A stretch of DNA of 64,000 nt from positions 1 through 64,000 of IMG/VR virus record IMGVR_UViG_3300012983_000044, one strand, 5' to 3'. The number at the start of each line of letters is the position of its first letter. Position 1 is the stretch's first letter. This stretch comes from a virus (lineage: Duplodnaviria > Caudoviricetes). Below the pieces are notes generated by a model, which made no database searches, had not been told where the DNA came from, and saw nothing but the letters and a program-made list of their open reading frames with translations. Positions 23,569 through 50,059 of the stretch are shown piece after piece. Made by a program: the position numbers and the translations under genes.

Positions 23569-24570
23569 ATGCAGATTACATCTCTGCCCGCAACGAGCAC
23601 CCTTGGCGACAACGACGTACTGGCCGTTGAAGTCAATGGCGTTACCTACAAGATCACTGGCGCTACTCTTGCGGCTGCGCTCCAGAGCATCGGTTCTCCG
23701 CTGGCTGCCGACAAGGGCGGCACTGGCCTGACGGCAAGCCCTTCTCTGCTGACGAACCTTTCCAGCTCCAGCGCCGCGAATATTCTTGCGGCTTCCCCGC
23801 GCCCCGGCGTGACCGGAGTTCTACCGCTGGGCAACGGCGGCCTTGGCAAGGACTTCTCCGCAGCAGCCTCAGTCGCAGGATTCCACAATTCCATCTTCCG
23901 GGGGAAAAACCTGGGCACGTCCCTCACCACGGCGCAGTCCGCGCAGATCACGGCGGGAACCTTCGACGACATGTTCATCGGGGACTACTGGGTCATCAAT
24001 GGCGTCACCTGGCGCATTGCAGACTTCGATCCCTACTACCGCTGCGGCGACAGCGCCAGCCTGGGCCATCACATCGCCGTCGTCCCGGACAACAACCTTT
24101 ATTCCACCAAGTGGAATGAGACGAACGACACTTCTACCGGCTATGTCGGCTCCGCCATTCGCGCCAACATCAAGGCCACATCCGCGTCTGATGCCGGTGC
24201 GGAAGAAAAAGTCATCGCTGCGTTTGGCGATGCGCACGTTCTTGCATACCGTGCCGAGTACCCCACGACCTATGCGGATGGCGCGGCTACCGGCTGGGCT
24301 TGGACGGATGCCCGCGTTGAACTGATGAACGAGGTTGAGGTTTACGGCTGCAACGTGTGGAGCAGCATGCCCGGCTACGAAACCGGCATTAACAAGCGTC
24401 AGCTTTCGCTTTTCCGTCTGGCACCGCAGTTCATCAACATCCGTGCCAACTGGTGGCTTCGGAGCGTCAGGTCCGCTACCGACGCCTGCCATGTCAACAA
24501 CACCGGCTACGCCTCCTCCAACAGTGCGTCCTACTCCCTTGGTGTCCGCCCGCTTTCCTTGATCCACTAA
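23569..24570 (+). CDS. DGR target 1: receptor-binding/fibre protein with C-terminal variable C-type-lectin-fold (DUF6273-like) domain
   Basis: Ends NWWLRS...GVRP; contains VR1; N-terminal QITSLP...GVTYKIT fibre-type segment; follows the tail tip gene. Confidence 0.9.
   Translation: MQITSLPATSTLGDNDVLAVEVNGVTYKITGATLAAALQSIGSPLAADKGGTGLTASPSLLTNLSSSSAANILAASPRPGVTGVLPLGNGGLGKDFSAAASVAGFHNSIFRGKNLGTSLTTAQSAQITAGTFDDMFIGDYWVINGVTWRIADFDPYYRCGDSASLGHHIAVVPDNNLYSTKWNETNDTSTGYVGSAIRANIKATSASDAGAEEKVIAAFGDAHVLAYRAEYPTTYADGAATGWAWTDARVELMNEVEVYGCNVWSSMPGYETGINKRQLSLFRLAPQFINIRANWWLRSVRSATDACHVNNTGYASSNSASYSLGVRPLSLIH
24442..24558 (+). repeat. DGR variable region VR1
   Basis: 117 nt matching TR 25324-25440 with 12 mismatches, all at TR adenines. 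Confidence 0.97.
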
Positions 24571-24573
24571 TCC

Positions 24574-24590
24574 TGCCGCCTGTGGCGGCA
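24574..24590. promoter_or_regulatory. DGR target-recognition hairpin downstream of VR1
   Basis: TGCCGCC-TGT-GGCGGCA, just after the stop codon. Confidence 0.8.
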
Positions 24591-24620: not shown

Positions 24621-25301
24621 ATGAGCGGTGTACATAAAAGTGAACGTGGCGAAAGCAAATTTGAAGTTCTGGACCATGCCATTATTCTGAAAAACATGAT
24701 CCGCGAGCTGAGCATATTGCGGAACTATGGCTATAAGGTACGCACGAGCAAGACGCCCAAGAACTTTGAGGCCTGGAGCGAAGCCAGCAAGGAACGCTGG
24801 AAGCAAAAGGAAGAAGAACGCCTCAAAAAGCTGGAATGGCTGGACAGGCACTTCCTTGTTGAGAAGCGCAGGCATGTTGAAGATGATCTCATGCGGATGA
24901 TGCACGGGATCAGCGCCGCCAACGCCATTCAGCGCCCGTCCTCCATGACCGAGGCTGATGAAAGACGAATCCAGCAGGACAGAGCGATTGCGGCTTGCGA
25001 GGATTTGAGGGTGGATTTGCAGGACATCATGGACACTGTTCCGATAGACAAAAACTGGATGACGCATATTGAGCCTGAAATCGTGTCGCAGATCGCTTTG
25101 CTCAAAGCATGGCGCAAGAGTGACAACGATATGCGGAAGGCCGTGCGTGAAGCAGATATGAAACGGTGGATCAAATTCCTGCAAAGGTGTATGAAGGAAG
25201 GTTCAGATACGGAGTTTCTGAAAGGAATCTACCATGCGTTTCTAAATGGTATGGAACGGTGCGAACTGGATGATAAAGACAGAAAAGTGCCGAAACCATA
25301 A
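24621..25301 (+). CDS. avd: DGR accessory variability determinant (Avd-like four-helix protein)
   Basis: Lies between target and TR/RT; helical, with AANAI, R...Q..AI..C and LLKAWRKSD motifs. Confidence 0.8.
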   Translation: MSGVHKSERGESKFEVLDHAIILKNMIRELSILRNYGYKVRTSKTPKNFEAWSEASKERWKQKEEERLKKLEWLDRHFLVEKRRHVEDDLMRMMHGISAANAIQRPSSMTEADERRIQQDRAIAACEDLRVDLQDIMDTVPIDKNWMTHIEPEIVSQIALLKAWRKSDNDMRKAVREADMKRWIKFLQRCMKEGSDTEFLKGIYHAFLNGMERCELDDKDRKVPKP

Positions 25302-25323: not shown

Positions 25324-25440
25324 CGTGCCAACTGGTGGCTTCGGAGCGTCAGGTCCGCTACCAACGCCTGCAATGTCAACAACAACGGCAACGCCAACAA
25401 CAACAGTGCGTCCAACTCCAATGGTGTCCGCCCGATTTCC
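25324..25440 (+). ncRNA. DGR template repeat (TR)
   Basis: AAC/AAT-rich (29 A, 12 AAY codons) master copy between avd and RT; matches VR1 and VR2 except at adenines. Confidence 0.96.
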
Positions 25441-33208: not shown

Positions 33209-33433
33209 GTGAAGCAAATGACCATCGACGAGATCAGGGCCAGTGACAAGGACATGTTGACGCCATCGGACGTTGCGCCGGTTTTGAATTGTCATCCGTA
33301 CAGCCTGAACGTCACGGCCAAGACCAACATCAAGGCGCTTGGGTTCCCGGCCTGTCTGGTTGGCACACGGTTGAAAATTCCGAGGATTGGTTTCCTTCGG
33401 TGGTATGACGGCTTGCAGGAGGTTACAACGTAA
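33209..33433 (+). CDS. Excisionase-like HTH protein
   Basis: LTPSDVAPVL...GTRLKIPR...FLRW pattern. Confidence 0.7.
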   Translation: MKQMTIDEIRASDKDMLTPSDVAPVLNCHPYSLNVTAKTNIKALGFPACLVGTRLKIPRIGFLRWYDGLQEVTT

Positions 33434-34254
33434 TGGCAGATCGTGACTTTAAGGGCGTATTCATCCCGAAGGCAATCTGGCTGAACAGGAACCTTAACCT
33501 TACGGATAAGGCTGTGCTGGTTGAGATTGACAGCCTGGATAACGGCGAGGATGGATGCTGGGCCAGCAACAAGCACTTTGCGCAAATGCTGGGCTGCACC
33601 GAACGTCAGGCGTCGGCGTCCATTTCAAAGCTCGTGAACATGGGCTATGTCAAGGTTCTCAGCTTCGACGGACGTACCCGGTATCTGCGGAGCCTCATGA
33701 ACGAGAAATGCGCCGAACAGGAGCACGAAAACCGCGAGGCAGCGTCACGGGAACTTCCAGGCAGCCTGACGGAAACTTCTACCCTGCCTGACGAAAACTT
33801 CCAGGCAGCCTCACAAAAACTTCCACCAAGTAAACCAAAGAGAAATACAAGGAGTAAAACACTGAGTATTTCTAAGAATCCTACGGATTCTTGCTCGGAG
33901 CCGGAAAAATCCGCCTCCGAGCCGACTGAACCGGCTGTGATTTCTCTGCCGCTCAATGACGGCACTGAGCATCCTGTCACCCAGGCGGACATCGACAAGT
34001 ATGTGAGCCTTTACCCGGCTGTAGACGTGATGCAGGAGCTTCGGAAGATGGTCGGGTGGATAGACGCAAGTCCCAAGAACAGGAAAACGCGCAAGGGAAT
34101 CAAGCGGTTCATCAATAGCTGGCTTTCTCGGGAGCAGGACAGAGGCGGAGGCAGGAAAGCGCAGGCGGCAGATCGGCCACAATCCAACGCCTTCGGCCTT
34201 GACCGGCGCAACAACAATACGCCTAAACCGTTCGGGGGTGGGATCATTGTCTGA
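33433..34254 (+). CDS. Replication initiator (N-terminal HTH, C-terminal DnaD-like domain)
   Basis: CWASNKHFAQMLG HTH; YPAVDVMQELRKM...W...FINSWL; upstream of loader; contains iterons. Confidence 0.85.
   Translation: MADRDFKGVFIPKAIWLNRNLNLTDKAVLVEIDSLDNGEDGCWASNKHFAQMLGCTERQASASISKLVNMGYVKVLSFDGRTRYLRSLMNEKCAEQEHENREAASRELPGSLTETSTLPDENFQAASQKLPPSKPKRNTRSKTLSISKNPTDSCSEPEKSASEPTEPAVISLPLNDGTEHPVTQADIDKYVSLYPAVDVMQELRKMVGWIDASPKNRKTRKGIKRFINSWLSREQDRGGGRKAQAADRPQSNAFGLDRRNNNTPKPFGGGIIV
33727..33827 (+). repeat. 22-bp iterons (probable replication origin)
   Basis: Units at 33727, 33749, 33771, 33793 and partial 33815, consensus G(A/G)AAACTTCCAGGCAGCCT(G/C)AC, followed by an A-rich tract. Confidence 0.75.
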
Positions 34255-35155
34255 GCAGGATGGGCGGCTGTCCGAAGTCGTCAAGGCACTGGAAGGGCTT
34301 GGAGCATTGACGCGGGAACAGTTCAGAGAGCGGGAGTACAAGCGGCTGGTGACGATTATGAACGAGCGCAATGCCCGGCCGGGGAAACTGAACGTGGATC
34401 ACATGGACGGTTTCGGCAGGCTGGTTCATGGGGATGGGATCGACTGTCAAAGGTGCCTGAACCGTGGCGCGGTAATGGTGATTCGGTATGATGGCACGAG
34501 CCTTCCGACGCTGGAATATCAGCCCTGCGATTGCGTAAAGCGCAGGGGCTACGCCAGACGGTTGAGCGATTCCGGGCTTGCAAGGGCTACGAGGAAATAT
34601 CGGTTCGACAACTTTGAGACCGTGGAGCCGTGGCAGACCTACATGCTGGACAAGGCGCGAAAGTACGTCCGGGAAGGTGCTACGGAAGGCAAGTGGCTGT
34701 ACATCGGCGGTCAGAGCGGAAGCGGCAAGACCCATCTCTGCACGGCGGTTGCGAACGAGCTGCTAAAGTGCGGCGATCTGAAATACGTCGTATGGCCGCA
34801 GACAGCAAGGTACATCAAAAGCCTTATCACCGATGATGAACGCTACGAAACTGAGGTCATGGCGCTCCAGAACGTGAAATTTCTGTACCTGGACGATTTC
34901 TTCAAGCCCGTGTTCAACGCCAACGGCATGGAGGCCATTTCGACGGCAGCGGATGTCCGGCTGGCCTACGATGTGCTGAACTACCGCTATCTGGCAGAGA
35001 TGCCGACGATCCTCTCCAGCGAATGGTTCTCCGCTGAACTGGCGCAGATCGACGAGGCGACGGCGGGGCGGATTGCGGAGGCGTGTGGAGAGTACAAAAT
35101 CGACGTCGGGCGCGATGTAAAGCGGAATCACAGGCTGAAAAGCGAGGTGATCTAA
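34247..35155 (+). CDS. DnaC/IstB-like helicase loader ATPase
   Basis: Walker A GQSGSGKTHL, Walker B LYLDDFFK, CxxC zinc motifs. Confidence 0.9.
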   Translation: MSEQDGRLSEVVKALEGLGALTREQFREREYKRLVTIMNERNARPGKLNVDHMDGFGRLVHGDGIDCQRCLNRGAVMVIRYDGTSLPTLEYQPCDCVKRRGYARRLSDSGLARATRKYRFDNFETVEPWQTYMLDKARKYVREGATEGKWLYIGGQSGSGKTHLCTAVANELLKCGDLKYVVWPQTARYIKSLITDDERYETEVMALQNVKFLYLDDFFKPVFNANGMEAISTAADVRLAYDVLNYRYLAEMPTILSSEWFSAELAQIDEATAGRIAEACGEYKIDVGRDVKRNHRLKSEVI

Positions 35156-35293
35156 CTGTGAACAGTTGTTGATTGCACGAGGTTAGGTAAGGCGTTGCGA
35201 GGCGTGGCGCTGTAGGTTGAGGCGCGGCAGACAAGGCAGGGTAAGACTGGCCACAAACAAGATGGATTAACAAATTCAAGACGATGAAAATTT

Positions 35294-37388: not shown

Positions 37389-38092
37389 AGCGCCTGGCGG
37401 ATGTGGGAGGCCGACGATAGATCGCGGCGCAAGACCGTGGGGATTCCTGGATTGCGCTCGGCAAGGCAGACCCTTGCGCCTCCCGGATGATGATTAAAGA
37501 TTGGAGAGGGGGATTGGTTCGCATGAAGAAATGGCTGAACGTGCTTGCAAAGTAAGATTTCATCATCGCCCAGCAGCCCCAGTTCCAGGGCCAAGAAATG
37601 GAGGCACCATCCAGCATGAGATATACTTCGGGATTTACTTAGCGGCCATACAAAAGGCCGATATATAAACCTCTTGCGATTGTGACGGTTTGAAAGACAA
37701 TGGTCTCAGTCAAAAAGCAAGTAGAAAACCTGTGTGGGCCTATCGGCGGAGGCTGGATGCCGTGGATGTGGATGGGCGGAAAGCCCAGGGAGCCGGGTTT
37801 ACATACATGAGGTTTACCGGCAACAATACAGATTGCTCAAAACTGAAAGGAGGCATGGCTGATGGCCTGGATTTGCTGGTATGCGCAGAGAGGCATAGCG
37901 AATTGCGCGAAAGACGTTATCTCGCTGGTCTGGACAATGCCTGAGTGTCCGAAGCGGCTTGGCAAAAGGGAAACGTCCCTGCATATCTGCGTGGCGTCCA
38001 GGGTTCGCAGATGCACAGCGGCCACGGGCGAGTAAATGCGGAAGATGCTCAGGCATGACACCTTCCGGCAGGCGCGGTTGCCTGCCGGATGT

Positions 38093-38166
38093 GGGCGAAT
38101 AGCTCAAACGGCAAGAGCAGCGGACTTTACATCCGTAGGATGATGGTTCAAATCCATCTTCGCCAG
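38093..38166 (+). tRNA. tRNA with UUA anticodon (ochre-suppressor-like or pseudo-tRNA)
   Basis: D arm GCTC/GAGC, anticodon arm GCGGA-CTTTACA-TCCGT, T arm GATGG-TTCAAAT-CCATC; G1:A72 mismatch and C37. Confidence 0.65.
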
Positions 38167-38310
38167 CGCGTCGTTTAATGGCATTCTTTGTGCGGGGCTA
38201 TAAGCCCAGCCGCATGCGTAATACTCCTCGCATGGGCGTCCGCCTGTAAGGCTGTACCTTCTTTTTTAGGTGGGTTTTTCAAAGGACGGCACTTATCAAA
38301 GGCGGGCTAT

Positions 38311-38381
38311 GCCGCCATCTTCCAAAGGCAGGAAAGCTGATCCGTAATCAGTGAATGTGGGTTCGATTCCTACTGGCGGCT
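38311..38381 (+). tRNA. tRNA-Thr (CGU), non-canonical C33
   Basis: GCCGCCA/TGGCGGC acceptor, GCTGA-TCCGTAA-TCAGT, GTGGG-TTCGATT-CCTAC. Confidence 0.75.
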
Positions 38382-38384
38382 TTT

Positions 38385-38455
38385 GCCGATGTAGTTCAAC
38401 GGTAAAACTGGTGCCTTGTAAGCACCTGTTCAGGGTTCGATTCCCTGCATCGGCT
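38385..38455 (+). tRNA. tRNA-Thr (UGU)
   Basis: GCCGATG/CATCGGC acceptor, GGTGC-CTTGTAA-GCACC, CAGGG-TTCGATT-CCCTG. Confidence 0.9.
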
Positions 38456-38463
38456 TTGATTAT

Positions 38464-38792
38464 GGGGTAGTAAAGGTTTCGACGGATCACGGAGAGCATT
38501 GAGATCGCGGGTAGGCGGAGCACCTTACGCAGCGCCCAAAAGAAACGATAATTACGATTATTTCCCTGCGGTAGCCTAAACCGCGCCCTAAACAGCGGAC
38601 CTGCTGACTGGTAACCGCTTGCGGGTCGAAGAAAAGCCAGCGCCACGAGTTTCCTGCTTCTCGCTTAAAAAGCAGGTGGTGGAAATCAAATCGGTCCCAG
38701 TGCGCCGGGCACTTAAAAACCGGCTATCGCGTAAGTAATTCTCAGTGTGTTTTGTGGTTCGGACAGGGGTTCGATTCCCCTCTACTCCACCA
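38464..38792 (+). ncRNA. ssrA: tmRNA
   Basis: 5' GGGGTAGTAAAGGTTTCGAC and 3' GACAGGGGTTCGATTCCCCTCTACTCCACCA with G3.U70; internal tag frame ending NDNYDYFPAVA* (TAA 38577-38579). Confidence 0.9.
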
Positions 38793-38882
38793 GCCCACGG
38801 CAACAGGCGCGTGGGGATGCTTGACAGGCTGCGAGAAATTTCCCCCGTTTCCCTCGCGTAAAGCTCAATAGAAACGGGATTG

Positions 38883-39039
38883 GGTCGCGGTGGCGGAATA
38901 TGTAGACGCTAATGCAGCCGTTGAGGTAGAGGTTCCTGTTCGAATCAGGGCGGCGATCTTGAGGGGAAGTCCCGTATCGCTGACGCTGTGTGGGTAAATG
39001 CCTTTACCATGTGTGGTGTAAATCCACACCCGCGATCCA
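38883..39039 (+). ncRNA. Class II tRNA-like RNA with the anticodon loop replaced by a 66-nt structured insert
   Basis: Acceptor, Leu-type D arm, anticodon stem, variable arm and T arm all pair by eye (see findings). Confidence 0.6.
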
Positions 39040-39061
39040 CAACACGAAAGGTGATGGTTGT

Positions 39062-39214
39062 ATGAGTGTATGCAAATGGTTGTCGGATGACTTCAACGAG
39101 GTTTGCGTCAACGGTGATTGCCCGGCCTGCGCTGATTTTTGCCCGACGACCAATTATCCGGGGCTGTGCCGTTACTTTGAGGATGATGGGAAGGATGCGG
39201 ATGACGGTTTATGA
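39062..39214 (+). CDS. Small Cys-rich protein
   Basis: AAAGGTGA RBS; MSVCKWL...CVNGDCPACADFCP...CRYF. Confidence 0.6.
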   Translation: MSVCKWLSDDFNEVCVNGDCPACADFCPTTNYPGLCRYFEDDGKDADDGL

Positions 39215-39428
39215 GAAGTGGGAACGCGCAGATGACGAGGTATTCCACCTGGGCGAAGCGATTGACCAGTTGAGTCAGGTGCGCGACTGTGACGACATGA
39301 TCCAGCGTTTGAAGGATCGAATGACGGTCATTGGCTTTGAGCGTGACCAATATCATGCGATGCTGGAGGAACAGAACCGGCGCGAGGATGCAGAACTGAG
39401 CAGGGAGTACATGTTAGCGACGATATGA
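39195..39428 (+). CDS. Hypothetical coiled-coil protein
   Basis: ORF coupled to neighbours. Confidence 0.55.
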   Translation: MRMTVYEKWERADDEVFHLGEAIDQLSQVRDCDDMIQRLKDRMTVIGFERDQYHAMLEEQNRREDAELSREYMLATI

Positions 39429-39441
39429 GAGAGGTGAGAGG

Positions 39442-40410
39442 TTGAACATTAAGAACATGAAGGTCTTTGCCGACACCCGCAAGATGTCCCATGAGGAATG
39501 GCTGGTGTCGCGCAGGAACGGCATTGGCGGCTCGGATGCAAGCTCCATACTGGGAGTGAATCCGTACAGTTCGCCGTTGAAGGTCTACCTGGACAAGATT
39601 GGCAAGGGCGAGGACAAGGAAACCAACGAGGCCATGCGCCAGGGCACGGACCTGGAGCAGTATGTGGCGGACAGATTCGTGGAGGCCACTGGAAAGAAGG
39701 TTCGCCGGTGCAACAAGATACTCCAGCACCCGGCATATCCGTGGATGCTTGCCAACATTGACCGGGACATCGTGGGGGAAAATGCCGGATTGGAGTGCAA
39801 GACCACTTCCCCGTATTCCAAGTTTGAGTTTGAGGAAGGCGAGATCAACCCGCACTACTACTGGCAGTGTGTTCACTACATGGCTGTGACCTGGGCGGAG
39901 AGATGGTATGTCAGCATCGTGGTCTTGGGCAAGGCCCATCACATCTTCTGCATTGAACGCGACGATGATTCCATTGCGACGCTCATCGAAGCTGAAAAGG
40001 ACTTCTGGCAAAACAATGTCGAGCGAAAGGTGCCGCCGCTTCCCACGGGGAGCGAGACAGACGATGACGCGATCCGCATGCTCTATCCCAAGGGCGAACA
40101 GGGTGATGCTTACATCGCCCTGGACTATGTGGACAATGTGCTGAACCTCCGAGCATTGAAGGTCAAGCAGCGCGACGAGCTACAGGCGGAGATCAACGAG
40201 ATAGATCAGCAGCTCAAAATGACCATGGGGACGTTTGAGCTTGGCATAAGCCCTAACTGGACGGTGCGTTGGACGAACACATGCAGCAACCGCATTGATA
40301 CCAAGGCGCTGAAAGCCAAATATCCGAAGATCGCGGCGGAAGTGACGAAACCCACGCCTGGACGGAGATTCAGCGTGGCGGCAGTGAAAAAGAATGAAAC
40401 CGATATATGA
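39442..40410 (+). CDS. YqaJ-like (lambda Exo family) recombination exonuclease
   Basis: WLVSRRNGIGGSD, LANIDR, LECKT, YYWQCVHYM. Confidence 0.93.
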   Translation: MNIKNMKVFADTRKMSHEEWLVSRRNGIGGSDASSILGVNPYSSPLKVYLDKIGKGEDKETNEAMRQGTDLEQYVADRFVEATGKKVRRCNKILQHPAYPWMLANIDRDIVGENAGLECKTTSPYSKFEFEEGEINPHYYWQCVHYMAVTWAERWYVSIVVLGKAHHIFCIERDDDSIATLIEAEKDFWQNNVERKVPPLPTGSETDDDAIRMLYPKGEQGDAYIALDYVDNVLNLRALKVKQRDELQAEINEIDQQLKMTMGTFELGISPNWTVRWTNTCSNRIDTKALKAKYPKIAAEVTKPTPGRRFSVAAVKKNETDI

Positions 40411-41083
40411 ACCGAAGGGCAAGGCCAAAGAATACGGAGATTTGGCCCTGAACATCTACACGGGTTGCCCACACAGATGTTTTTACTGTTTTGCACCCTC
40501 TGTACTGCGCCGCGACCGGGAGAAATTTCACAGCGATGTAAGGCCGCGTGAAAACATCGTCGAAGAAACCCGCAAGCAGTTGGAGCGCGAGAAGATCACT
40601 GACAGGTTGATTCACTTGTGCTTTACCTGTGATCCCTACCCTACCGGGTACAACACTTTGGTGACTCGGAGAATCATCGAAGTGCTGAAAGAATATGGGA
40701 ATCATGTTCAGATACTTACAAAGGGTGATGGTACGCGGGATTTCGACCTTCTGGATGACGAGGATTGGTACGGGATTACCATTGACGGCAATAAGGTGAT
40801 TTCTGCCGGATGTCCGCCTGTTTTTCAGATAAGGCGAGCAAAAGAACGCGGGATAAAAACGTGGGTGAGCTTTGAACCCGTTCTTGATACTGAGCGTGTG
40901 CTGTTTCTGATAGAAGCCATGGCCCCAACGATGGACAAGGTGAAAATCGGAAAACTGAACTATCATCCGTCCGACATCGACTGGAAGAAGTTCGGCAACG
41001 ATGCGGAAGCGCTTTGCAAAAGGCTTGGATTGGACTACTACATAAAGGATAGTCTGCGAGCAGAGATGGAAAAAGAAAAATGA
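40394..41083 (+). CDS. Radical SAM protein
   Basis: NIYTGCPHRCFYC (CxxxCxxC), DPYP, ILTK, TWVSFEP. Confidence 0.88.
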   Translation: MKPIYEPKGKAKEYGDLALNIYTGCPHRCFYCFAPSVLRRDREKFHSDVRPRENIVEETRKQLEREKITDRLIHLCFTCDPYPTGYNTLVTRRIIEVLKEYGNHVQILTKGDGTRDFDLLDDEDWYGITIDGNKVISAGCPPVFQIRRAKERGIKTWVSFEPVLDTERVLFLIEAMAPTMDKVKIGKLNYHPSDIDWKKFGNDAEALCKRLGLDYYIKDSLRAEMEKEK

Positions 41084-42032
41084 TGATGACTCATTTATCA
41101 CTGTTTAGCGGTATCGGTGGCCTGGATTTGGCAGCAGAGGCAGCAGGGTTTATCACTGTAGGGCAGTGTGAATGGGCTGACTATCAGACAAAAGTGCTTG
41201 AAAGGCACTGGCCTGATGTGCCGCGCTGGCGTGACATTCGGACGCTTACGGGAGATAGTTTCTATGAACGGACAGGATTACGAACAGTTGACGTTATTTC
41301 CGGAGGATTCCCTTGCCAGCCGTTTAGCCAAGCCGGGAAGCGAAAAGGCGAGGATGATGACCGTTACCTCTGGCCTGAAATGCTTAGAGTCATACAGGAG
41401 CTTCGGCCAACTTGGGTGCTTGGTGAAAACGTTGCTGGGATCATCAATCTGGCACTCGACTCGGTGCTTTCTGACTTGGAAAATATCGGCTACTCCACGC
41501 AAGCGTTTAATATTCCGGCTTGTGGCGTCGATGCCCCGCATAAGAGAGAACGAATCGCTATTCTGGCCTACTCCATCGACGGGAGCAGCGCTTTGCGGCG
41601 GAACAGGGAACTTCAAGACATTGAAGAAAATGGCCGAAAAAGGGCTGATAACAGAGAGCGAACGTCGGCAGTTATCGCAAGGGAACGGAGGCAAGACAAA
41701 CCCGGCGCTATTGGAATGGTTGATGGGTTACGAGCAGCAGTTTACAAGGCTGATATTAACCCCTACAGCGACGGATTACAAAGGCGGATCAATGACGCGC
41801 TGCTGGACGACCAGAAAATTGCGGGGGGGGGTGGGTTCGAGTGTTCGAGCCTGCGCCACTTCCTGGAGATCACTCCGCTTGGGAAAATTGGCCAGATGAA
41901 CCCGGAGTGGATAGAGTGGTTGATGGGATACCCAATCGGGTGGACCGAATTAGATGTCTCGGAAACGCGGTAGTGCCACAACAGTTTTATCCGTTTTTCA
42001 AGGTTATATACGATATTGAGAAGGAGGAATAA
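41080..42032 (+). CDS. C5-cytosine DNA methyltransferase, frameshifted at G9 (41823-41831)
   Basis: SLFSGIGG (I), GGFPCQPFS (IV), ENV (VI), RERI (VIII). Motif X (RIRCLGNAVVP) lies in the -1 frame (ORF 41841-42032); G10 restores 317 aa. Confidence 0.88.
41264..41973 (+). CDS. Overprinted partner ORF inside the methyltransferase gene (WPTP...NPxxxEWLMG), also broken at G9
   Basis: Own RBS GGGAG before ATG 41264; two TP...NP..EWLMGY units, the second completed only with G10 (236 aa). Confidence 0.7.
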
Positions 42033-42034
42033 GA

Positions 42035-42280
42035 TTGGACGACAAGGCATTGAAGATCGTTCGGGATTACATCACCGAGCATCTGGACAAGAGCGACCAG
42101 ACGCCGACCTTTGAGGTGTACATGGTCTGGAAGGCCAAAGTGCTTCAGAACTGGAAGTACCTGATCTCCAGCACGCTGTTTGACGGCATGTACTACGAGC
42201 TGACCTACAACGGCGATAAGAAGGAATGGTATCTGGACGCCTACAAGAAGTTTGAGAATCGTGTGATTAAGGAGGATTAA
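42035..42280 (+). CDS. DUF6275-like small protein
   Basis: VYMVWKAKVLQNWK...DGMYYELTYNGDKKEWYLDAYKK. Confidence 0.75.
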   Translation: MDDKALKIVRDYITEHLDKSDQTPTFEVYMVWKAKVLQNWKYLISSTLFDGMYYELTYNGDKKEWYLDAYKKFENRVIKED

Positions 42281-42282
42281 AG

Positions 42283-42640
42283 ATGGAACAGACGACGATC
42301 AAGACCCCGAAAAAGACGGCGGCGCTGGCTCCCAAGACGACCCAGGCAGTGGCGAAGAAGCAGGGTACGGCGCTGGACTACCTGAACAACGGGAAGTTCA
42401 AGGAACAGCTTGCGGCGGCTCTGCCGAAGTTCCTGGACACCGACCACTTCATTCGCTCGGCAATCACTGAGTTCCGGCTGAATCCCGAGCTGGCTGAGTG
42501 CTCTGTCCCCTCTGTGCTGGGCTACTTCATGCAGGCGGCGGCTTGCGGTCTGGAGCCCGCGTCGATGCTGGGACAGTGCTACCCCGTGCCGTTCAACAAC
42601 AAAAAGACGGGGCAGAGGGAAGCACAGTTCATTTGTGGCT
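42283..42640 (+). CDS. recT: RecT-like single-strand annealing protein, exon 1
   Basis: LAECSVPSVLG, GLEP..LGQCYPVPF, AQFICG; spliced junction gives GY-RGMLSIARRSG (294 aa). Confidence 0.9.
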
Positions 42641-43440
42641 GAAACTTTGCGGTCACATTAAACCGTGTGAACCCTATTACTCAGGGGTGTGCCGAAAGGT
42701 GCTAACGGGGGAACCCGCCGACAAAGGGCAATCCCGTGCTTTAAGGAGATAGCGATGATAGCCATTTACAAGATCACCAACACCACAAACGGTCAATTCT
42801 ACATCGGTTCTTCCGGGAATTACAGGAAGCGATTGCAGAAGTGGCGAGACTGGCGTAACAGCGCCAGTAATCCGAAACTGATCCATGATTTTCAGACCAT
42901 CGGATTTGACAAGTTCGTGTTTGAGGTCATTCAGGAGTTGCCGCCCGGAACATCGAGGCGTGAACGGGAACAGATGGAATATGATTTGATCCATCAGTTA
43001 CAGCCGTTCTACAACACGATAGGGAAGGAACGACCGCCTGATACGCGAGAAAAGCTACGCAATGCGAGCCTTGGAAGGAAGCATACTGCCGAGGAATTGC
43101 AAAAACAATCCGCTTCCCTGAAAGCGAGATTTGCAGAACATTCGAGAGACGGTTCATGTACATTCAAACCTGTCTTTGTGGTGGAGACGGGGGAGACGTT
43201 TGAAAACGTAAAGGCGGCGACTGCTGCCCTGGGATGCGGAGATGGATGCGTGAGCAGAGCATTAAAGCGCCCGAATTATACGGTGAGAGGCTATCACGTT
43301 CGATACTTGGAGTGTAGAGACTAACCGCGATGAATGTAGCGGTGTAGGGCCGAGGATGAGTTACGGCCCGAAGTGCATGGCATCCGAAAGGATGAAGATA
43401 TAGTCCACTCCCGCAGGATGGTAAACTGCGGGGATGAGTG
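42641..43440 (+). mobile_element. Group I intron in recT (800 nt)
   Basis: Exon ends U (42640), intron ends G (43440). P1 pairs TGTGGCT with GGTCACA (42651-42657). Core motifs GGCAATCCCGTG, GAGACTA, AAGATATAGTC. Confidence 0.92.
42755..43324 (+). CDS. Intron-encoded GIY-YIG homing endonuclease
   Basis: AIYKITN...FYIGSS, catalytic R, E and N positions, NUMOD3-like basic tail; AAGGAG RBS. Confidence 0.9.
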   Translation: MIAIYKITNTTNGQFYIGSSGNYRKRLQKWRDWRNSASNPKLIHDFQTIGFDKFVFEVIQELPPGTSRREREQMEYDLIHQLQPFYNTIGKERPPDTREKLRNASLGRKHTAEELQKQSASLKARFAEHSRDGSCTFKPVFVVETGETFENVKAATAALGCGDGCVSRALKRPNYTVRGYHVRYLECRD

Positions 43441-43967
43441 ACAGAGGAATGTTGAGTATCGCGCGGCGCAGCGGCGAAATTGCCAGTGTTGACGCGCAGA
43501 TCGTCCACGCGAATGATACGTTCGACATTGAGTATGGCCTGGAGCCGAAGCTGGTCCATAAGCCCTGCCTGACCGGTGATCCCGGTCAGATGATCGGCGC
43601 GTATGTCGTGGTCCGCTTCAAGGGTGATGGCGTGGAACCGCTGATGAAGTACATGCCGAAATCCGAGATCGACAATCACCGCAAGCGCAGCAAGGCCAGT
43701 TCCTACGGCCCGTGGGTCACCGACTATGACGAGATGGCGAAAAAGACCGTGTTCCGCAGCGTGTTCAAGTGGCTGCCTATCTCCATTGAGCAGATTCAGG
43801 CGACGACAACGGACGGCGCGGTTTCCCGCTACAACGCCAATGCCAAGACGGATGACATCGAGGACCTGGTGGAGGTCGAGTTTGTGGCCGCCGAGGATGA
43901 CAGCCGCGTGACGGCGGAGGAGGCAGTTGAGCAGTTCGCAGGCGGAGATGACAAGCAGGAGGGTTGA
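43441..43967 (+). CDS. recT: RecT-like protein, exon 2
   Basis: GPWVTDYDEMAKKTV.R...KWLP motif. Confidence 0.9.
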
Positions 43968-43991
43968 TCCCTCCTGCACAACAAATGGAGG

Positions 43992-44666
43992 ATGGATAAC
44001 ATGTGCGAAAGCAAAAATGACACCGTGAACATTCACGCCTCGTGCGGTTCGTTCTTTGTGGATGTGACCATTCAGGGGGCGGCATGGCCGCATGTGGCAG
44101 ATGAAGATCGCGTGCCCGTTGAAGTTGCTGGCAGGCCCCGCGTTGGTGAGGTCATGCGCTTCGAGTTAACGGATGGTGAACCTGTTGAGGTGATGGTGCT
44201 GGAGGATGACGGCGATGCGGCGACGCTCATTTTCGTTGATTGCCTGAAAGACGAATACCCTCTGAAAGAAGATGGGGATTACAGCGGCGGGTACGAAAGC
44301 TCCGATCTGAGGAAGAAGCTCAACGATGAAATCCTGAAACGCTTCCCGCAGGAAATGCTCAAACGCATGGTGCCTTTCGCCAACGGGGATATGCTCAGAA
44401 TCCCTACTGAGCGTGAAATTTTTGGCGAGAACAAGTATGGCAAAGAAGAACCCGATACCGTGCGGCAGTTTGAAGCCATGAAAAAGCGCAGGAACCGCAT
44501 TGCGTTCCAGGGTTTGAACGGCGATTGGGAATGGTATTGGCTACAGAACAAAGTTCGGAGCGTCAGGTCCGCTACCCACGCCTGCAATGTCTACGCCCAC
44601 GGCTACGCCGGCTACACCAGTGCGTCCACCTCCTATGGTGTCCGCCCGCTTTTCAAATATCGGTAA
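43992..44666 (+). CDS. DGR target 2: DUF6273-like protein in the early region
   Basis: GGYESSDLRKKLN, WYWLQ...GVRP; contains VR2; no signal peptide or TM segment seen. Confidence 0.9.
   Translation: MDNMCESKNDTVNIHASCGSFFVDVTIQGAAWPHVADEDRVPVEVAGRPRVGEVMRFELTDGEPVEVMVLEDDGDAATLIFVDCLKDEYPLKEDGDYSGGYESSDLRKKLNDEILKRFPQEMLKRMVPFANGDMLRIPTEREIFGENKYGKEEPDTVRQFEAMKKRRNRIAFQGLNGDWEWYWLQNKVRSVRSATHACNVYAHGYAGYTSASTSYGVRPLFKYR
44554..44652 (+). repeat. DGR variable region VR2
   Basis: About 99 nt matching the TR with 13 mismatches, all at TR adenines. Confidence 0.95.
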
Positions 44667-44669
44667 TCC

Positions 44670-44686
44670 CGCCGCCTGTGGCGGCG
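44670..44686. promoter_or_regulatory. DGR target-recognition hairpin downstream of VR2
   Basis: CGCCGCC-TGT-GGCGGCG, same core as after VR1. Confidence 0.8.
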
Positions 44687-44705
44687 AAAAGAAAGGATAA
44701 GTGAT

Positions 44706-45077
44706 ATGGCACAGCAGAGACAGATCAAGAAGCTGGATGAGCTGATGGATGGAGCGTTGACCGAACGCTTCAACTATGAGATGGACCGCGTGCTCCAGAA
44801 CGTGTTTGACCTGAACGCGGATCCCAAGAAGAAGCGGCAGATTCAGATCATCATTGAGATCACGCCGAACGAGCGCCGTGACGCTGCGGAGTTCAAGGTT
44901 GATGTAAAGTCGCGGCTTGCACAGCCGATGCCCGTTGCACAGACGGTGATGCTCTATCAGGATGATGACGGCAACGTGACGGCGACGGAGATCACCAATC
45001 AGATTCCGGGCCAGATGAATATGGACGGCGGTGTAACCATTCCCAAGGTCGTCCAGTTTGACACGGCGACGAACTAA
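44706..45077 (+). CDS. Conserved phage hypothetical protein
   Basis: GALTERF...VF..I.D.N...KKKR.I, IPGQM motif; strong RBS. Confidence 0.75.
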   Translation: MAQQRQIKKLDELMDGALTERFNYEMDRVLQNVFDLNADPKKKRQIQIIIEITPNERRDAAEFKVDVKSRLAQPMPVAQTVMLYQDDDGNVTATEITNQIPGQMNMDGGVTIPKVVQFDTATN

Positions 45078-45091
45078 GGAGGAAAAAGAGC

Positions 45092-45883
45092 ATGAAGGCA
45101 AATGAGTACATGCAGATCGCTACGCCGGAGGCGGCGCGGGCTGAGATGGAATACCTGGTCAATACCGGCAGGAGGGCACGGGAGGCGGAGGAAACCCCGC
45201 AGGTGGTGAATATCCTGGGCGAAACCTATACCGCCTATAAGGGCCGCCTGGAGCGCGTGAAGCCATTCCGCGAGGAAAAGCCGGATGTGTTCGAGGCGTT
45301 CTCCCTGTCCGGCCTGGTGGACTTCATCAAGGCAGATGTGGACGGCATGTTCAACGAGAAGGATTACCGTCACACCGTCAGAGTGGTCAATACCCGCAAG
45401 GTCGAAGTGCTCACTCCTATGTACGGCTATTACAAGGAGCGCGATGTTGTGGCGAAGTGCGACGCTCTGGTGCCCGACATTCCGTTCGGCAGATTCATGG
45501 ATGTTGACGAGTTCCAGATCATGCTCCAGAGCCGCTTTGAGGACAGCACCAACCGGGCGCTGGTGCTACAGCTTTCCGGCAGCCTGAGAAGCGAGCAGAG
45601 CAATCAGATTGCCGACGATGGCGTGAGCCAGAAGGTCACGATCAAGCGCGGTGTTGCGACAGCGGATGACGTGACCGTCAAGAATCCCGTTACGCTGCGC
45701 CCCCTGCGCACGTTCTACGAGGTTGAACAGCCTGAAAGCCCGTTCATTCTCCGCTTCAATGAAAACGCCAATGCGGCCCTGTTTGAGGGCGACGGCGGCG
45801 CGTGGAAACTGCGTGCCGTTGAAAACATTCGTAACTGGCTGGTGGCAAAGCTGGCAGGATGCAATGTGGAAGTCATTGCGTAA
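45092..45883 (+). CDS. Conserved phage hypothetical protein (partner of previous gene)
   Basis: DDGVSQKVT, NPVTLRP.RTF.EVEQPES.F, ALFEGDGGAWK. Confidence 0.75.
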   Translation: MKANEYMQIATPEAARAEMEYLVNTGRRAREAEETPQVVNILGETYTAYKGRLERVKPFREEKPDVFEAFSLSGLVDFIKADVDGMFNEKDYRHTVRVVNTRKVEVLTPMYGYYKERDVVAKCDALVPDIPFGRFMDVDEFQIMLQSRFEDSTNRALVLQLSGSLRSEQSNQIADDGVSQKVTIKRGVATADDVTVKNPVTLRPLRTFYEVEQPESPFILRFNENANAALFEGDGGAWKLRAVENIRNWLVAKLAGCNVEVIA

Positions 45884-45886
45884 ACG

Positions 45887-46171
45887 ATGGCAGCGGATGG
45901 CAACTGGAGGAAGCTCCCTCACCCTAAGACCCCGGTTCCTCCCGGCAATCGCTTTGCGGACCGGCTGTGGTGGGTGATGGAGACGCACGGACATTCCGCA
46001 CTGAGGGTCAGCAGGATCGTTGGCGTAAGCTGCAAGACGATATTCACCTATCTGTCCGGATATGAAAACCCGAAGGTGAAAGTGGTCGTTGCTCTGGCAA
46101 AGCATTACGGTGTCACAACCGACTTCCTGCTGGGCCTGTCGGATGATCAGAACGGGGCGCATGTGAACTGA
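45887..46171 (+). CDS. XRE-family HTH regulator
   Basis: RVSRIVGVS..TI..Y..G...P....ALAKHYGVTTDFLLG. Confidence 0.8.
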   Translation: MAADGNWRKLPHPKTPVPPGNRFADRLWWVMETHGHSALRVSRIVGVSCKTIFTYLSGYENPKVKVVVALAKHYGVTTDFLLGLSDDQNGAHVN

Positions 46172-46309
46172 GCCGCTGACGGCGGCGGGCGGGTGGCGGG
46201 TTGATAGATAGATTTGAAACGGATTTAATGCTGCGAGACGGATTGAGATTTCAGGGATGGATTTATAAGGAGGACGATAAAAGACAGACATGCGTGGAGG
46301 ATAGATATT

Positions 46310-46717
46310 GTGAATAAAGTCATTGAGATCGGACGAATCGCAACTGACATCGAAAGCAAGGTAACGCAGAGCGGCATTTCATGGGCGACGTTCAAGATTG
46401 CCGTAAACCGCAGATTCAGGAACGCTGATGGAAAGCGCGACGCGGATTTTATTCCGGTGGTGGCGTGGCGGCAGTCGGCAGACTATGTGAAGCAATACGG
46501 ACATAAGGGTGACCGTGTTGCCGTGTGTGGCTCTGTGCAGGTGCGGAGCTACGATGCCCAGGACGGCAGCAAGAGGTATGTGACAGAGATCAATGCCGAT
46601 GAGATCGAACTGCTTGGAGGGCGAAGCGAGAACACGCAGACCTCTACGCAAGCCCAAAGCATGGAGCAGCAGGGGTTTACGGAAGTGGATGACGATGACG
46701 ATCAGTTGCTGTTCTGA
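46310..46717 (+). CDS. ssb: Single-stranded DNA-binding protein
   Basis: NKVIEIGR, ADFIPVVAWR, KGDRVAVCG, acidic DDDDQLLF tail. Confidence 0.93.
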   Translation: MNKVIEIGRIATDIESKVTQSGISWATFKIAVNRRFRNADGKRDADFIPVVAWRQSADYVKQYGHKGDRVAVCGSVQVRSYDAQDGSKRYVTEINADEIELLGGRSENTQTSTQAQSMEQQGFTEVDDDDDQLLF

Positions 46718-46734
46718 TCCGAAGGAGAAAGCAG

Positions 46735-47295
46735 ATGAGTTTATTGGGGAGCCGGATCGCAGGAGGCAACACGGCCTACAATCGCGTGAAGTCAGATTTT
46801 TACCCTACCCCCCCCGAAGCGACACAAGCACTTCTGAATTTCCTTAGACTGCCGATTGGCACAAAGGTGTGGGAACCTGCGTATGGCAGCGGATGTATGG
46901 CGGAGGTTATGAGAAAGAATGGGCTGACTGTAATCGGAACCGATATTGAAACCGGAACCGATTATCTGACGGCAAGCCTTCCTGAAAGTGACGTGTCGTG
47001 GATCATAACCAACCCTCCGTTTTCTATTGCGGATGGATTCATTGAGCGCAGTTATGAGCATTGCCTGCCATTTGCATTGCTCTTAAAGACACAGTTCTGG
47101 CACGCACGAAAGAGGTACGATATGTTCGCAAAGAATCGTCCTGCCTATATTCTGCCGCTTACATGGCGTCCGGACTTTATGTTCAAGCAACGTGGGAAAG
47201 GCTCTCCGCTTATGGATGTTACGTGGACTGTGTGGATTCCCGGAAACCACAAGAGTGCCTACATACCACTTAAAAAGCCAGTGACAAGCCCGTAG
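46735..47295 (+). CDS. Putative amino (N6-adenine/N4-cytosine) methyltransferase with in-frame C8 tract
   Basis: DFYPTP, VWEPAYGSG (motif I), IITNPPF (motif IV); C8 at 46808-46815. Confidence 0.8.
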   Translation: MSLLGSRIAGGNTAYNRVKSDFYPTPPEATQALLNFLRLPIGTKVWEPAYGSGCMAEVMRKNGLTVIGTDIETGTDYLTASLPESDVSWIITNPPFSIADGFIERSYEHCLPFALLLKTQFWHARKRYDMFAKNRPAYILPLTWRPDFMFKQRGKGSPLMDVTWTVWIPGNHKSAYIPLKKPVTSP

Positions 47296-47311
47296 AAGGA
47301 AGTGAACCAAC

Positions 47312-48715
47312 GTGTCCTCAGATTTTGTCCAGGAGCAGATCAAAAAGTCAGGCGATGACAAGTTCCGCAATAAGGATGCGGAAAGCGCCGTCATAGGCTA
47401 TATTCTAACCGGCAAAGCGGACGCTGAGGACATCGTTGGGAGCCTGAGTCCGGAGGATTTTGGATATGTCGTTTCAGCACAGATATACAAGGCAATTCAA
47501 CATGTTGCTTCGCAGGGGCAACATGTTGACCTGGTGACTGTTGGTCAGGCGCTACAGGAGCTATATCCGGCTGAGACGGAAAAGAAGCTGTCAGAGGCCA
47601 TAACGCGGTGCTTTAGTGATAATCTGAGATACCGGCACAGAAACCCCGCTGAATGGATTCAGATTATTAAAAAGCTCGCTGTACGGCGTCGGGCTATCAC
47701 CAGCATAGATAAGCTGGTGGGTAACCTTCGGGACCCGACGAAGGACATCAACGAGGCGCTTGCTGAAATCGAAGCAACGGCTTCGGGCGTTGAAAGCTCA
47801 GAGGTTAAATGGACGAGTGTGGCAGATGTGGCGATGCGCACGTTTGAATACCTGGAGCAGAGACAGCAGGGAAAAATACCGGCCATCACAAGCGGCATTA
47901 GCGGAATTGACAGGATGATCGGGGGCTTTTTCGGTGGCGAGCTGACGATCATTGCCGCAAGACCGGCAGTCGGGAAGAGCGCTTTTGGCTTGAATATCGC
48001 AATGAGCGCCACTGACAAGGGCTTCAAGGTCTGCTTTGTGTCCTGCGAGATGAATGACACGGGCTATGGGCAAAGGATGCTCTCACGCGAGGCATGGGTG
48101 AACGGAGAAACGCTGCGCAAGGCGGAGATCGACGCGGATGAATGGGACAGGTTGGTGACGGCTCTGAGCATTATCGGTGCTATGCCGATTGAGTTCATGT
48201 TCGCCAAGGACAATCCAAACGGCATGACGCTGGAAAACGTCACGCGGTCCATTCGCCAAAAAGCCCGGCGCGGCGAGGTCGATATGCTGATCGTGGACTA
48301 CATCGGCATACTGCAAACAGAGCGACGGTTCCGGGAGGACCGAGATCGCGTGAAGTTCATCACATCGGAGCTTAAAAAGCTGTCTCAGGTGGCGAATATC
48401 CCTGTCATCGCCCTGTGTCAGGTCAACCGTGACGCCCACGGCCAGATGCCAACGATGGCCCAGCTCCGTGACAGTGGCTCTGTGGAGCAGGATTCGGATG
48501 GAATTATGTTCCTGCATCGGCCCGAAAGCAACCGCGATCCAACCATCCACCCAAACGACGTTGCCGGGTTTGAGCAGATGAACAGTGGAACAGCATACAT
48601 CTCGTTGAATGTCGCCAAACAGCGCAATGGCAAAACGGGCATGATAAATCTGATATTTGACCCAGGCGTGATGAGATACGCAGAGATTGCGAGAATGGAG
48701 GAACAGAAGGCGTGA
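47312..48715 (+). CDS. dnaB: Replicative DnaB-like helicase
   Basis: AARPAVGKS, VDYIG, LCQVNR, LRDSGSVEQDSD, VAKQRNG. Confidence 0.95.
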   Translation: MSSDFVQEQIKKSGDDKFRNKDAESAVIGYILTGKADAEDIVGSLSPEDFGYVVSAQIYKAIQHVASQGQHVDLVTVGQALQELYPAETEKKLSEAITRCFSDNLRYRHRNPAEWIQIIKKLAVRRRAITSIDKLVGNLRDPTKDINEALAEIEATASGVESSEVKWTSVADVAMRTFEYLEQRQQGKIPAITSGISGIDRMIGGFFGGELTIIAARPAVGKSAFGLNIAMSATDKGFKVCFVSCEMNDTGYGQRMLSREAWVNGETLRKAEIDADEWDRLVTALSIIGAMPIEFMFAKDNPNGMTLENVTRSIRQKARRGEVDMLIVDYIGILQTERRFREDRDRVKFITSELKKLSQVANIPVIALCQVNRDAHGQMPTMAQLRDSGSVEQDSDGIMFLHRPESNRDPTIHPNDVAGFEQMNSGTAYISLNVAKQRNGKTGMINLIFDPGVMRYAEIARMEEQKA

Positions 48716-49411
48716 CGTATGAGGAGTTTTTGCAGGGAAAGATTGACATTGCGGAAGAGACGGGGATTGTCGTTGAATCGGAAGCTGTCAATCCAGCGCT
48801 GAAACCGCATCAGAGAGACGCAGTTTTGTGGGCTTTAAGGGGGGGGAAGAAGGGCGCTGTTTGAAAGCTTTGGGCTTGGCAAAACCGTTCAACAGCTGGA
48901 ATGGTCGAGACTGATTCACGAGCGTACAGGCGTCAGGGTTCTGATCGTGTGTCCGCTTGGTGTCAAGCAGGAATTTCAGTTGGATGCGATTCGACTGCTG
49001 AAATGGCTGGCAGCACCGCCGTATGTGCGGACGGATGCGGAGGCGGCGGCGACGGACGCGCCGATTGTGCTGACCAACTACGAGCGCGTGCGGGACGGGG
49101 ACATCGACCCGAAGCGGTTCGGCGCGGTGTCGCTGGATGAGGCGAGCTGTCTGAGAAGCTATGGCAGTAAGACCTATGCTCTTGTATTACTGAAATCTCA
49201 GGAGCAGGAGTTGCGTTACCGCACACCCCAAAAGGTAGAACACGAAGCCACGCTCAAAAGGTGTTGCACCTGTCCGTCGTGCGGAAACGTGCTGGATCAG
49301 TTTGAACAGTTTGGAGTGGGAAAAGTCAGGATCATGAACGATTATTGCCACTTCTGCGGCCAGGCGTTGGATTGGAGCGACGAGGAAAAGAGTTTAGTGA
49401 GGTTCAAATGA
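48712..49411 (+). pseudogene. Truncated SNF2-like helicase N-terminus (frameshift at G8 48839-48846) fused to a zinc-ribbon C-terminus
   Basis: LKPHQ..AV, FGLGKT (motif I), TNYE, LDEAS (motif II). After GSKTY the sequence turns into an unrelated CPSCG...YCHFCGQALDW domain; helicase C-terminal motifs are absent. Confidence 0.7.
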
Positions 49412-49731
49412 CCGAGAGGGAGCGGCAGGAGTCAGCCAAGAAGGTCATTGACGTTTTGAACCGTTATCCAAACTACCTGTTTGGTGACAGGCCAAGTGTC
49501 AGCACTTCTGAGATCATTGAGCTGCTGCAAATCTATATTCCCCGCAAACTGGAGGGCGACGGCACTGGCTGGGCGATGTGTCCGAACTGCGGAACCTACG
49601 TCGAGGATTATCACCCGGCATATAGCAACAGACTGGACGGCACTCATCGAAAGCACTGTAACAACTGCGGTCAGGCACTTATATGGGAAGTTGAGATGTG
49701 GAATGAACGCACAAACGAAAGAAATGATTGA
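49408..49731 (+). CDS. Small zinc-ribbon protein
   Basis: CPNCG...HCNNCGQALIW. Confidence 0.65.
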   Translation: MTERERQESAKKVIDVLNRYPNYLFGDRPSVSTSEIIELLQIYIPRKLEGDGTGWAMCPNCGTYVEDYHPAYSNRLDGTHRKHCNNCGQALIWEVEMWNERTNERND

Positions 49732-50059
49732 TCTGCCGTCAGAATGGGACATTTCTACCAAGATCAGTTTCCTTCAAAGGCGCGTGATTGTGTACTCCAT
49801 CCAATACTACGAGTTCAACGCGACGGTTATCAGCGACGCACAGTATGACGCCATCGCCCGGCAACTGGAAAGCCTGATGAGGTCGGCAACGCCCGAGGAA
49901 CTTGAAAGAAGCACCTATTGGTATTGCATGTACAATTTCACTGCTGCGACGGGGTTTGACATCTATTCAAGGCTTGACCCAAAAGATAAAGAATATCTGG
50001 AGCATATTGCTGACATTGTTCTGGATGATTACAGACACATGATGGGATTGAAAGGGTGA
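49703..50059 (+). CDS. Stand-alone protein resembling NAD+-dependent ligase domain Ia
   Basis: YYEFNATVISDAQYDAIARQL resembles the LigA Y..D...I.DA.YD...R.L pattern. Confidence 0.6.
   Translation: MNAQTKEMIDLPSEWDISTKISFLQRRVIVYSIQYYEFNATVISDAQYDAIARQLESLMRSATPEELERSTYWYCMYNFTAATGFDIYSRLDPKDKEYLEHIADIVLDDYRHMMGLKG

Follow-up and report, generated by a model that had tools for sequence, protein, structure and literature searches.

The locus described here raises the question of whether the single DGR of a phage can rewrite, besides a gene in the tail module, a second gene situated among early genes some 19 kb away and, if so, what the product of that second gene might do. The question arose from a first-pass annotation of the stretch of DNA that we analyzed in full (64,000 nt, referred to below as the window), which is part of a virus record of 72,248 nt rated 100% complete. 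The features under discussion are listed in Table 1.

Table 1. Components of the DGR and its two target genes in the window
Feature	Position	Strand	Basis or remarks
DGR target 1, 333-aa tail-module protein	23569..24570	+	ORF; C-terminal DUF6273-like end
VR1, with IMH-like run at 24541-24552	24442..24558	+	mismatches to TR at A only
Hairpin after VR1	24575..24589	+	exact motif search and DNA fold, -8.6 kcal/mol
Avd-like accessory gene, 226 aa, longer than usual	24621..25301	+	between target 1 and TR
Template repeat (TR)	25324..25440	+	IMH*-like end is GGTGTCCGCCCG-A
DGR-type reverse transcriptase (RT), 432 aa	25580..26878	+	phrog_1423, 3.2e-42
DGR target 2, 221-aa stand-alone DUF6273/C-type-lectin-like protein	44001..44666	+	DUF6273, 1.8e-9; phrog_21980, 1.5e-23
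VR2	44554..44649	+	13/13 mismatches at TR adenines
IMH-like 3′ end of VR2	44637..44654	+	GGTGTCCGCCCG-C; differs from TR as VR1 does
Hairpin after VR2	44671..44685	+	fold -9.7 kcal/mol; sequence and 22-nt spacing as after VR1

One template repeat and two variable repeats

A search combining ORFs, repeats and profiles located a compact DGR cassette directly 3′ of the tail genes. The gene of target 1 immediately follows that of a 2011-aa tail protein, and its product matches Pfam DUF6273 with 23.3 bits, slightly below the cut-off. In an ungapped comparison VR1 (24442-24553) differs from the matching part of the TR (25324-25435) at 12 positions, all 12 of which are adenines in the TR. The hairpin that follows VR1 has a 7-bp GC stem and a TGT loop and lies 22 nt beyond the IMH-like run. 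The TR is adjoined by an intact RT gene: the YMDD and GDQFSQ (G-x3-SQ) motifs are read without interruption from the translation, and the protein scores 26.1 bits against Pfam RVT_1, which is under the Pfam cut-off of 29.6. Searches of Pfam and PHROG with the accessory ORF returned no matches. A weak pairwise match (E 0.002) was obtained with orf23, the Avd of Roseburia phage Shimadzu, and it takes in the end of the proteins (LKAWRKSD/LKGWRKND). Separately, a 42-nt periodic repeat coding for a (D)YSHAEG-type motif was observed at 22632-23062, near the C-terminus of the 2011-aa tail protein.

VR2 is located 19.2 kb downstream of the TR. It had been described as differing from the TR by 13 mismatches, all at adenines, and ungapped comparison of its 96 nt with TR positions 25340-25435 reproduced this count. 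All the mismatches fall on the 27 adenines in this stretch of the TR, with none at the remaining 69 positions. A chance repeat was considered as the explanation of VR2 and rejected, the probability that 13 random mismatches would all fall on A being 5e-9. When the complete record was searched with the TR by BLAST, exactly three TR-like copies were detected, namely the TR itself, VR1 and VR2 (E 3e-30 for the last). This result and the restriction of mismatches to adenines bear out the view that a single TR serves two VRs. The additional statement that VR1 and VR2 carry different substitutions holds only in part, since seven substituted TR positions are common to both.

The elements that border VR1 on its 3′ side were also found at VR2, as the first-pass annotation had claimed, and with the same 22-nt spacing. 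The sequence GGTGTCCGCCCG occurs three times in the window, followed by C at both VRs and by A at the TR. The sequence GCCGCCTGTGGCGGC occurs twice, in each case 22 nt past the GGTGTCCGCCCG run and directly preceded by TAATCC. The hairpin after VR2 lacks a T run and was absent from the terminator-like sites picked up in a scan of the region (see below). At its 5′ end (44554-44576) VR2 is identical to the TR over 23 nt, and 5′ homology of this kind is needed for cDNA integration.

By analogy with the BPP-1 paradigm, RNA of the TR would be copied into cDNA by an error-prone RT that misreads adenines, and the cDNA would then replace the VR in either target gene. Targeting of the cDNA at the 3′ side could be provided by the IMH-like run together with the downstream hairpin, and its 5′ end might be resolved within the 23-nt block of perfect homology. 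Read in the frame of VR2, the TR contains ten AAC and two AAT codons. The expected product of the second target gene would be a soluble protein in which about 12 C-terminal residues coded by AAC/AAT are randomised.

Variation of VR2 among relatives

Comparison of 16 proteins with 76-100% identity revealed that they are near-invariant except in a linker (residues ~30-48) and at exactly the positions coded by AAC. At the DNA level, four distinct relatives show variation in 22 of the 27 VR columns corresponding to TR adenines, compared with 9 of the remaining 69 (Fisher p = 3e-10); in the part of the gene that precedes the VR, the proportion of variable columns is 19%. Residue types were also counted in two clusters of at least 90% identity, with 10-15 sequences. 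The hypervariable VR positions (AAC or AAT in the TR) displayed 4-9 residue types, mostly 6-9, and all but a few of the other variable sites had two. The A-specific polymorphism that had been put forward as a population check on VR2 is thus present in relatives.

Since relatives vary at exactly the AAC-coded positions, it is highly probable that VR2 is a genuine second target of the single DGR of this phage and that the site is active now or has been so recently. For the strain represented by the window, we infer current activity from these relatives and not from its own reads, a circumstance that speaks for regarding VR2 as a frozen relic or as an ordinary duplicated segment that is not, or never was, rewritten by a DGR. 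We consider this very improbable: the mismatches are strictly confined to A with no decay at the 69 non-A positions, the IMH-like run and the hairpin have been kept at VR2, and near-identical relatives are hypervariable at exactly the AAC positions. Overall, because the cis elements are present, the RT is intact and the variation among relatives fits, the proposed rewriting mechanism at VR2 appears as secure as sequence analysis allows.

Genomic position of the VR2 gene

The genome is arranged in the order of packaging, head, tail, DGR and lysis genes, followed by a minus-strand integrase and repressor and by a long plus-strand array of early genes. This array starts with genes of the replication initiator, a DnaC-like loader, a RecE-like exonuclease and a C5 methyltransferase, continues with recT, the VR2 gene, phrog_997, phrog_1029 and an HTH protein, and ends with SSB, a methyltransferase and a DnaB-like helicase. 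The VR2 gene is therefore no part of the structural module but has recT on one side and the phrog_997, SSB and DnaB genes on the other, in agreement with its first description. It begins 34 nt past recT, and the next gene follows 40 nt 3′ of it. Scanning of positions 38000-50000 for promoters and terminators gave nothing above shuffled sequences. Tight packing on the same strand, without a terminator-like T run, suggests that the VR2 gene is co-transcribed with the early genes.

The recT gene preceding VR2 is itself split (42283-43967). Residues 1-128 of the intact RecT of a relative (L012; 294 aa) correspond to 42283-42666, and residues 121-295 to the second recT part at 43443-43967. The insert of ~800 nt carries an ORF for a GIY-YIG homing endonuclease (42689-43324) and a match to a group I intron (43166-43432), which is sub-threshold with 18.2 bits versus a gathering score of 50. 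This insert is probably a mobile group I intron.

The product of the VR2 gene

The start of the VR2 gene had been placed at 43992, where an in-frame ATG is indeed found. The ATG at 44001 is the likelier start; a GGAGG sequence (43987-43991) is located 9 nt upstream, and the resulting protein of 221 aa is that given in database gene calls. Its residues 154-221 match Pfam DUF6273, and phrog_21980, which it also matches, is a family without assigned function in PHROGs. It aligns with target 1 with 31% identity over 156 columns.

Modelling with AlphaFold, for which 65 homologues were used, gave a confident prediction of residues 45-165, a poor one of the N-terminal 42 residues and low confidence in the VR loop (pLDDT <50). 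The C-type-lectin/DUF6273 fold was recognised solely by exhaustive structural comparison; Foldseek against the PDB yielded only meaningless weak matches with the model, and a sequence-profile search of the PDB yielded nothing. In the exhaustive comparison, residues 43-221 of the model matched the N-terminal DUF6273 domain of the Thomasclavelia ramosa IgA peptidase (IgAse), a domain named in PMC12402451, with Z 10.3 over 148 aligned residues. Further matches were to the DGR protein TvpA (Z 5.4), Lcl (Z 4.2), PvdO (Z 4.1) and TaqVP (Z 2.7), and a weak one to Mtd (Z 2.5). Matches in BFVD were to other unannotated DUF6273 phage proteins and are uninformative on function. On the strength of the DUF6273 match and the structural matches, the model indicates that target 2 is one C-type-lectin-like domain plus a short extension. 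By the Pfam match and the model, in which the VR loop has low pLDDT, VR2 codes for the C-terminal part of this fold.

The protein is acidic, with a pI of 5.3. No transmembrane segment could be found in it (the maximum Kyte-Doolittle mean over 19 residues is 1.09), and no fibre or anchor domain was recognised in the model, where residues 43-221 form a single domain. Hydropathy, model and fold matches are thus all in line with the original description of a protein without a transmembrane segment or a fibre-type domain.

Homologues in other phages and their templates

Homologues of target 2 fall into 1905 clusters at E <= 1e-3, most of them 185-225 aa in length, and come from prophages of Lachnospiraceae, Oscillospiraceae, Christensenellales and Faecalibacterium. 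Megablast of positions 41000-48000 against 50,697 phage records detected no near relative. Two isolated phages carry a homologue, Acutalibacter phage Fontainebleau (tblastn 2e-28) and Roseburia phage Shimadzu (orf43). In the former it is located between DNA polymerase I and a helicase, and in the latter between a methyltransferase and Erf; in both phages the RT is behind the tail genes and VR1 is in a tail-module gene. Comparison of the 3′ end of the homologue with the TR of the same phage showed that 16 of 17 mismatches are at adenines in Fontainebleau and 14 of 14 in Shimadzu. In the Fontainebleau record (ON453893; L001/L004) the TR is at ~35105-35194, VR1 at ~34390-34479 and VR2 at ~9800-9889. 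The product of its VR2 gene, WAK78934, is given there just as a hypothetical protein, and our literature search found no paper on the Fontainebleau DGR.

The same relationship was analyzed in ten long IMG/VR records, of which the eight rated at least 90% complete were counted. All eight encode a DGR-type RT, with 36-45% identity to the RT of the window in seven and ~30% in the eighth. In seven of the eight, the 3′ end of the small gene matches a TR located next to the RT, and the mismatches located at TR adenines amount to 15/15, 19/20, 16/17, 5/5, 18/18, 4/4 and 15/15. For the remaining complete relative (L040/G001), a search reaching 1.5 kb from each of its two RTs gave no TR match.

It had been suggested that a native gene "captured" an end compatible with the TR, because homology to the TR starts abruptly within the gene. 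The comparison lends this no support, as homologues match their own TRs in seven of the eight complete relatives and in Shimadzu and Fontainebleau. In the three phages where the start of TR homology was located (the phage of the window, Shimadzu and Fontainebleau), it lies just after a conserved WYW motif, and this common start favours common descent of the VR-bearing gene. Taken together, the matches to the respective TRs and the start after WYW suggest an old and habitual second DGR target, in which retrohoming would keep step with each TR, and not a recent capture.

Family members vary at their N-terminus. Close relatives have a conserved N-terminal stretch of 25 residues in common; in more distant homologues, which begin near residue 47, the N-terminal segment is missing. 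A search for longer, fused forms gave one protein of 415 aa, encoded on a 3-kb contig, in which a partial domain adjoins a D5-type primase; this fusion could be artefactual. Members of 245-301 aa have extensions without a Pfam match, with the exception of one DUF6275 fusion. That 274-aa protein (P0018) is a DUF6275-DUF6273 fusion, and in close relatives of the phage of the window (L012, 8822-9079) an 85-aa DUF6275 protein is encoded separately, immediately before recT. These arrangements hint that the two early proteins are functionally linked.

Neighbouring genes and possible functions

To characterize the setting of the family, 80 IMG/VR loci were condensed to 33 distinct contexts, and in each of these the two closest genes of appreciable size to either side were scanned, 126 proteins altogether. 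The most frequent neighbouring PHROG families were primase (11), Holliday-junction resolvase (9) and helicase (7), followed by methyltransferase (4), polymerase (3) and sigma factor (3). In metagenomic contigs the homologue is found 3′ of an intact recT or beside helicase, methylase, Erf or VapE-type primase genes. Such small DGR targets, among them Shimadzu orf43 and the members of phrog_21980, habitually reside in the recombination/replication block of gut Clostridia phages and have as their partner a target in the tail module that draws on the same TR.

Head, tail and packaging families are absent from the 25 most frequent neighbours in the 33 contexts. This has to be set against the possibility that target 2 is a component of the virion, either a second RBP or a decoration adhesin, encoded off-module and attached via its short N-terminal segment or the lectin domain itself. 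Its fold and TR-coded binding site are as in the tail-module target, and the N-terminal 25 residues conserved in close relatives could be a docking peptide. Receptor binding has also been proposed as the role of DUF6273 targets remote from the cassette (10.1101/2024.10.15.618418) and of small single-domain ones adjoining it (PMC10743442). The more distant homologues nevertheless dispense with the N-terminal segment, and the model contains no fibre or anchor domain. The lack of a signal peptide, which the first-pass annotation had counted towards a cytoplasmic protein, does not discriminate, since virion proteins are likewise without one. A literature search for virion proteomics of family members found none. 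On balance a place in the virion is doubtful, although a real possibility.

A free, non-virion ligand binder made early, to which we give about an even chance, is favoured by the position of the gene, by the missing attachment domain and by the tendency of the whole family to accompany replication genes. C-type-lectin DGR targets are typically extracellular binders, and a free protein could in principle work outside the cell as a soluble lectin released at lysis, with cell-wall debris, neighbouring bacteria, mucus or host glycans as candidate ligands. Target 2 is acidic and has no transmembrane segment, and its closest solved fold is the DUF6273 domain of an IgA peptidase that is secreted by a gut bacterium (PMC12402451). 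A protein needed only at lysis would, however, be expected among the late or lysis genes and not between recT and SSB, and without a secretion signal its release would be wholly lysis-dependent. Such a role strikes us as distinctly unlikely.

The free early binder might instead act inside the cell. The specific proposal of a cytoplasmic inhibitor or decoy of a host defence protein is compatible with the position of the gene, which is its basis. In a more general form, the small DUF6273 proteins would be intracellular, early-expressed hypervariable binders with which phages hedge their bets against variable host factors, for example those of defence or restriction; we put this forward tentatively, as a rather unlikely but specific suggestion. 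If it were correct, the family would be to phages what the DGR-diversified cytoplasmic "antigen sensors" are to multicellular bacteria (PMC10907252), and phage DGRs would gain a second role beside tropism switching.

Comparison with known systems

The BPP-1 DGR is composed of mtd, avd, TR and brt. The system in the window resembles it in A-specific mutagenesis, the IMH-like run, the downstream hairpin and a C-type-lectin fold with a C-terminal VR. In BPP-1, however, there is only one VR, and it belongs to a trimeric tail-fibre protein of 381 aa with N-terminal domains, whereas the second target in the window has a single domain and is encoded amid early genes at a distance of 19 kb. Its 221 aa, the N-terminal 42 of which are modelled with low confidence, include no Mtd-type fibre or attachment domains ahead of the lectin domain.

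The closest parallel is phage Shimadzu (record LR596903), in which VR2 in orf43 was described by Cornuault et al. (10.1101/575076). At each of the two VRs of that phage, ~2% of virion reads were found to contain 10-15 changes of the DGR type, and both VRs were changed in five of five phage isolates from mice (10.1101/575076). The protein encoded by orf43 is homologous to target 2 (32% identity over 79% of the query, E 2e-15), its gene lies among methyltransferase, Erf and SSB genes, and one TR serves a VR1 in a tail gene and a remote VR2 with A-only mismatches and a hairpin after it. The two phages differ in lineage and host. Moreover, in the window the VR2 gene follows a recT split by the intron-like insert, target 2 has an extra, poorly conserved N-terminal segment of ~45 aa, and the accessory protein, at 226 aa, is longer than the Avd of Shimadzu (136 aa).

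Faecalibacterium phages Lelie and CP11 have 'large' and 'small' DUF6273 targets whose function was called unclear (PMC11792537). The second VR gene of Toutatisvirus, likewise of the DUF6273 type, is a core gene at a distance of 17,480 nt from the TR, and receptor binding was suggested for it (10.1101/2024.10.15.618418). By description, these phages are like the one studied here in having two VRs per DGR, both in DUF6273 targets and both C-terminal; unlike us, their authors lean to receptor binding and do not discuss a position in the replication module. Quimbyvirus has a distal DGR target among defence-type genes, which was presumed non-structural because of its nuclease and methyltransferase neighbours and for which a role in phage-host conflict was proposed (PMC8008677). 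The likeness noted here is one of layout. Quimbyvirus is a Bacteroides phage with a frameshifted RT, and the distal target belongs to a defence-type island and is encoded on the opposite strand. In the two-target DGRs of Baykov et al. the targets adjoin the cassette (PMC10743442), and remote targets were undetectable by the design of the largest DGR survey (PMC8144416).

Neither part of the first-pass proposal is consequently new, since both the observation and its interpretation have published precedents: the remote second target in Shimadzu, Lelie, CP11 and Toutatis, and the idea of a non-structural, conflict-related DGR target in Quimbyvirus (PMC8008677). Taken alone, the VR2 locus is one more well-documented two-target phage DGR. 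The main interest is in the function of the family, which has thousands of members in gut Clostridia phages with replication and recombination genes as its commonest neighbours. What is added here is the census of neighbouring families in 33 contexts, along with the DGR RT in all eight and the matching template in seven of eight complete relatives. Cultivable carriers of the family exist in Shimadzu (R. intestinalis) and Fontainebleau (A. muris).

Other features of the genome

A cluster of RNA genes with two tRNA-Thr genes is present in the early region (38093-38792). It includes a suppressor-type tRNA with the anticodon TTA, which reads UAA (38093-38167), and a phage tmRNA (38464-38792) with the tag peptide GAPYAAPKRNDNYDYFPAVA. 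In a rough ORF map, TAA stops terminate 11 of 18 structural and DGR genes versus 4 of 27 early genes. The VR2 gene also ends in TAA, and in the stretch 44664-44708 a run of 13 sense codons, uninterrupted by a further stop, leads in frame to the ATG of the next gene (44706). Hypothetically, read-through by the UAA-reading tRNA of the phage would fuse the VR2 protein to the phrog_997 protein; an in-frame neighbour on the 3′ side has a one-in-three probability of arising by accident.

Four tandem 22-nt repeats (ACGRAAACTTCCAGGCAGCCTG-like) were found at 33725-33834, inside the replication-initiator gene (33433-34254), and look like iterons of the phage origin. Finally, ARAGORN and Rfam both identified a tRNA-Trp (CCA) at 2070-2141, inside the 5′ end of a 575-aa ORF (2017-3744), so that either the true start of this ORF is further downstream or the predicted tRNA extends over coding sequence.
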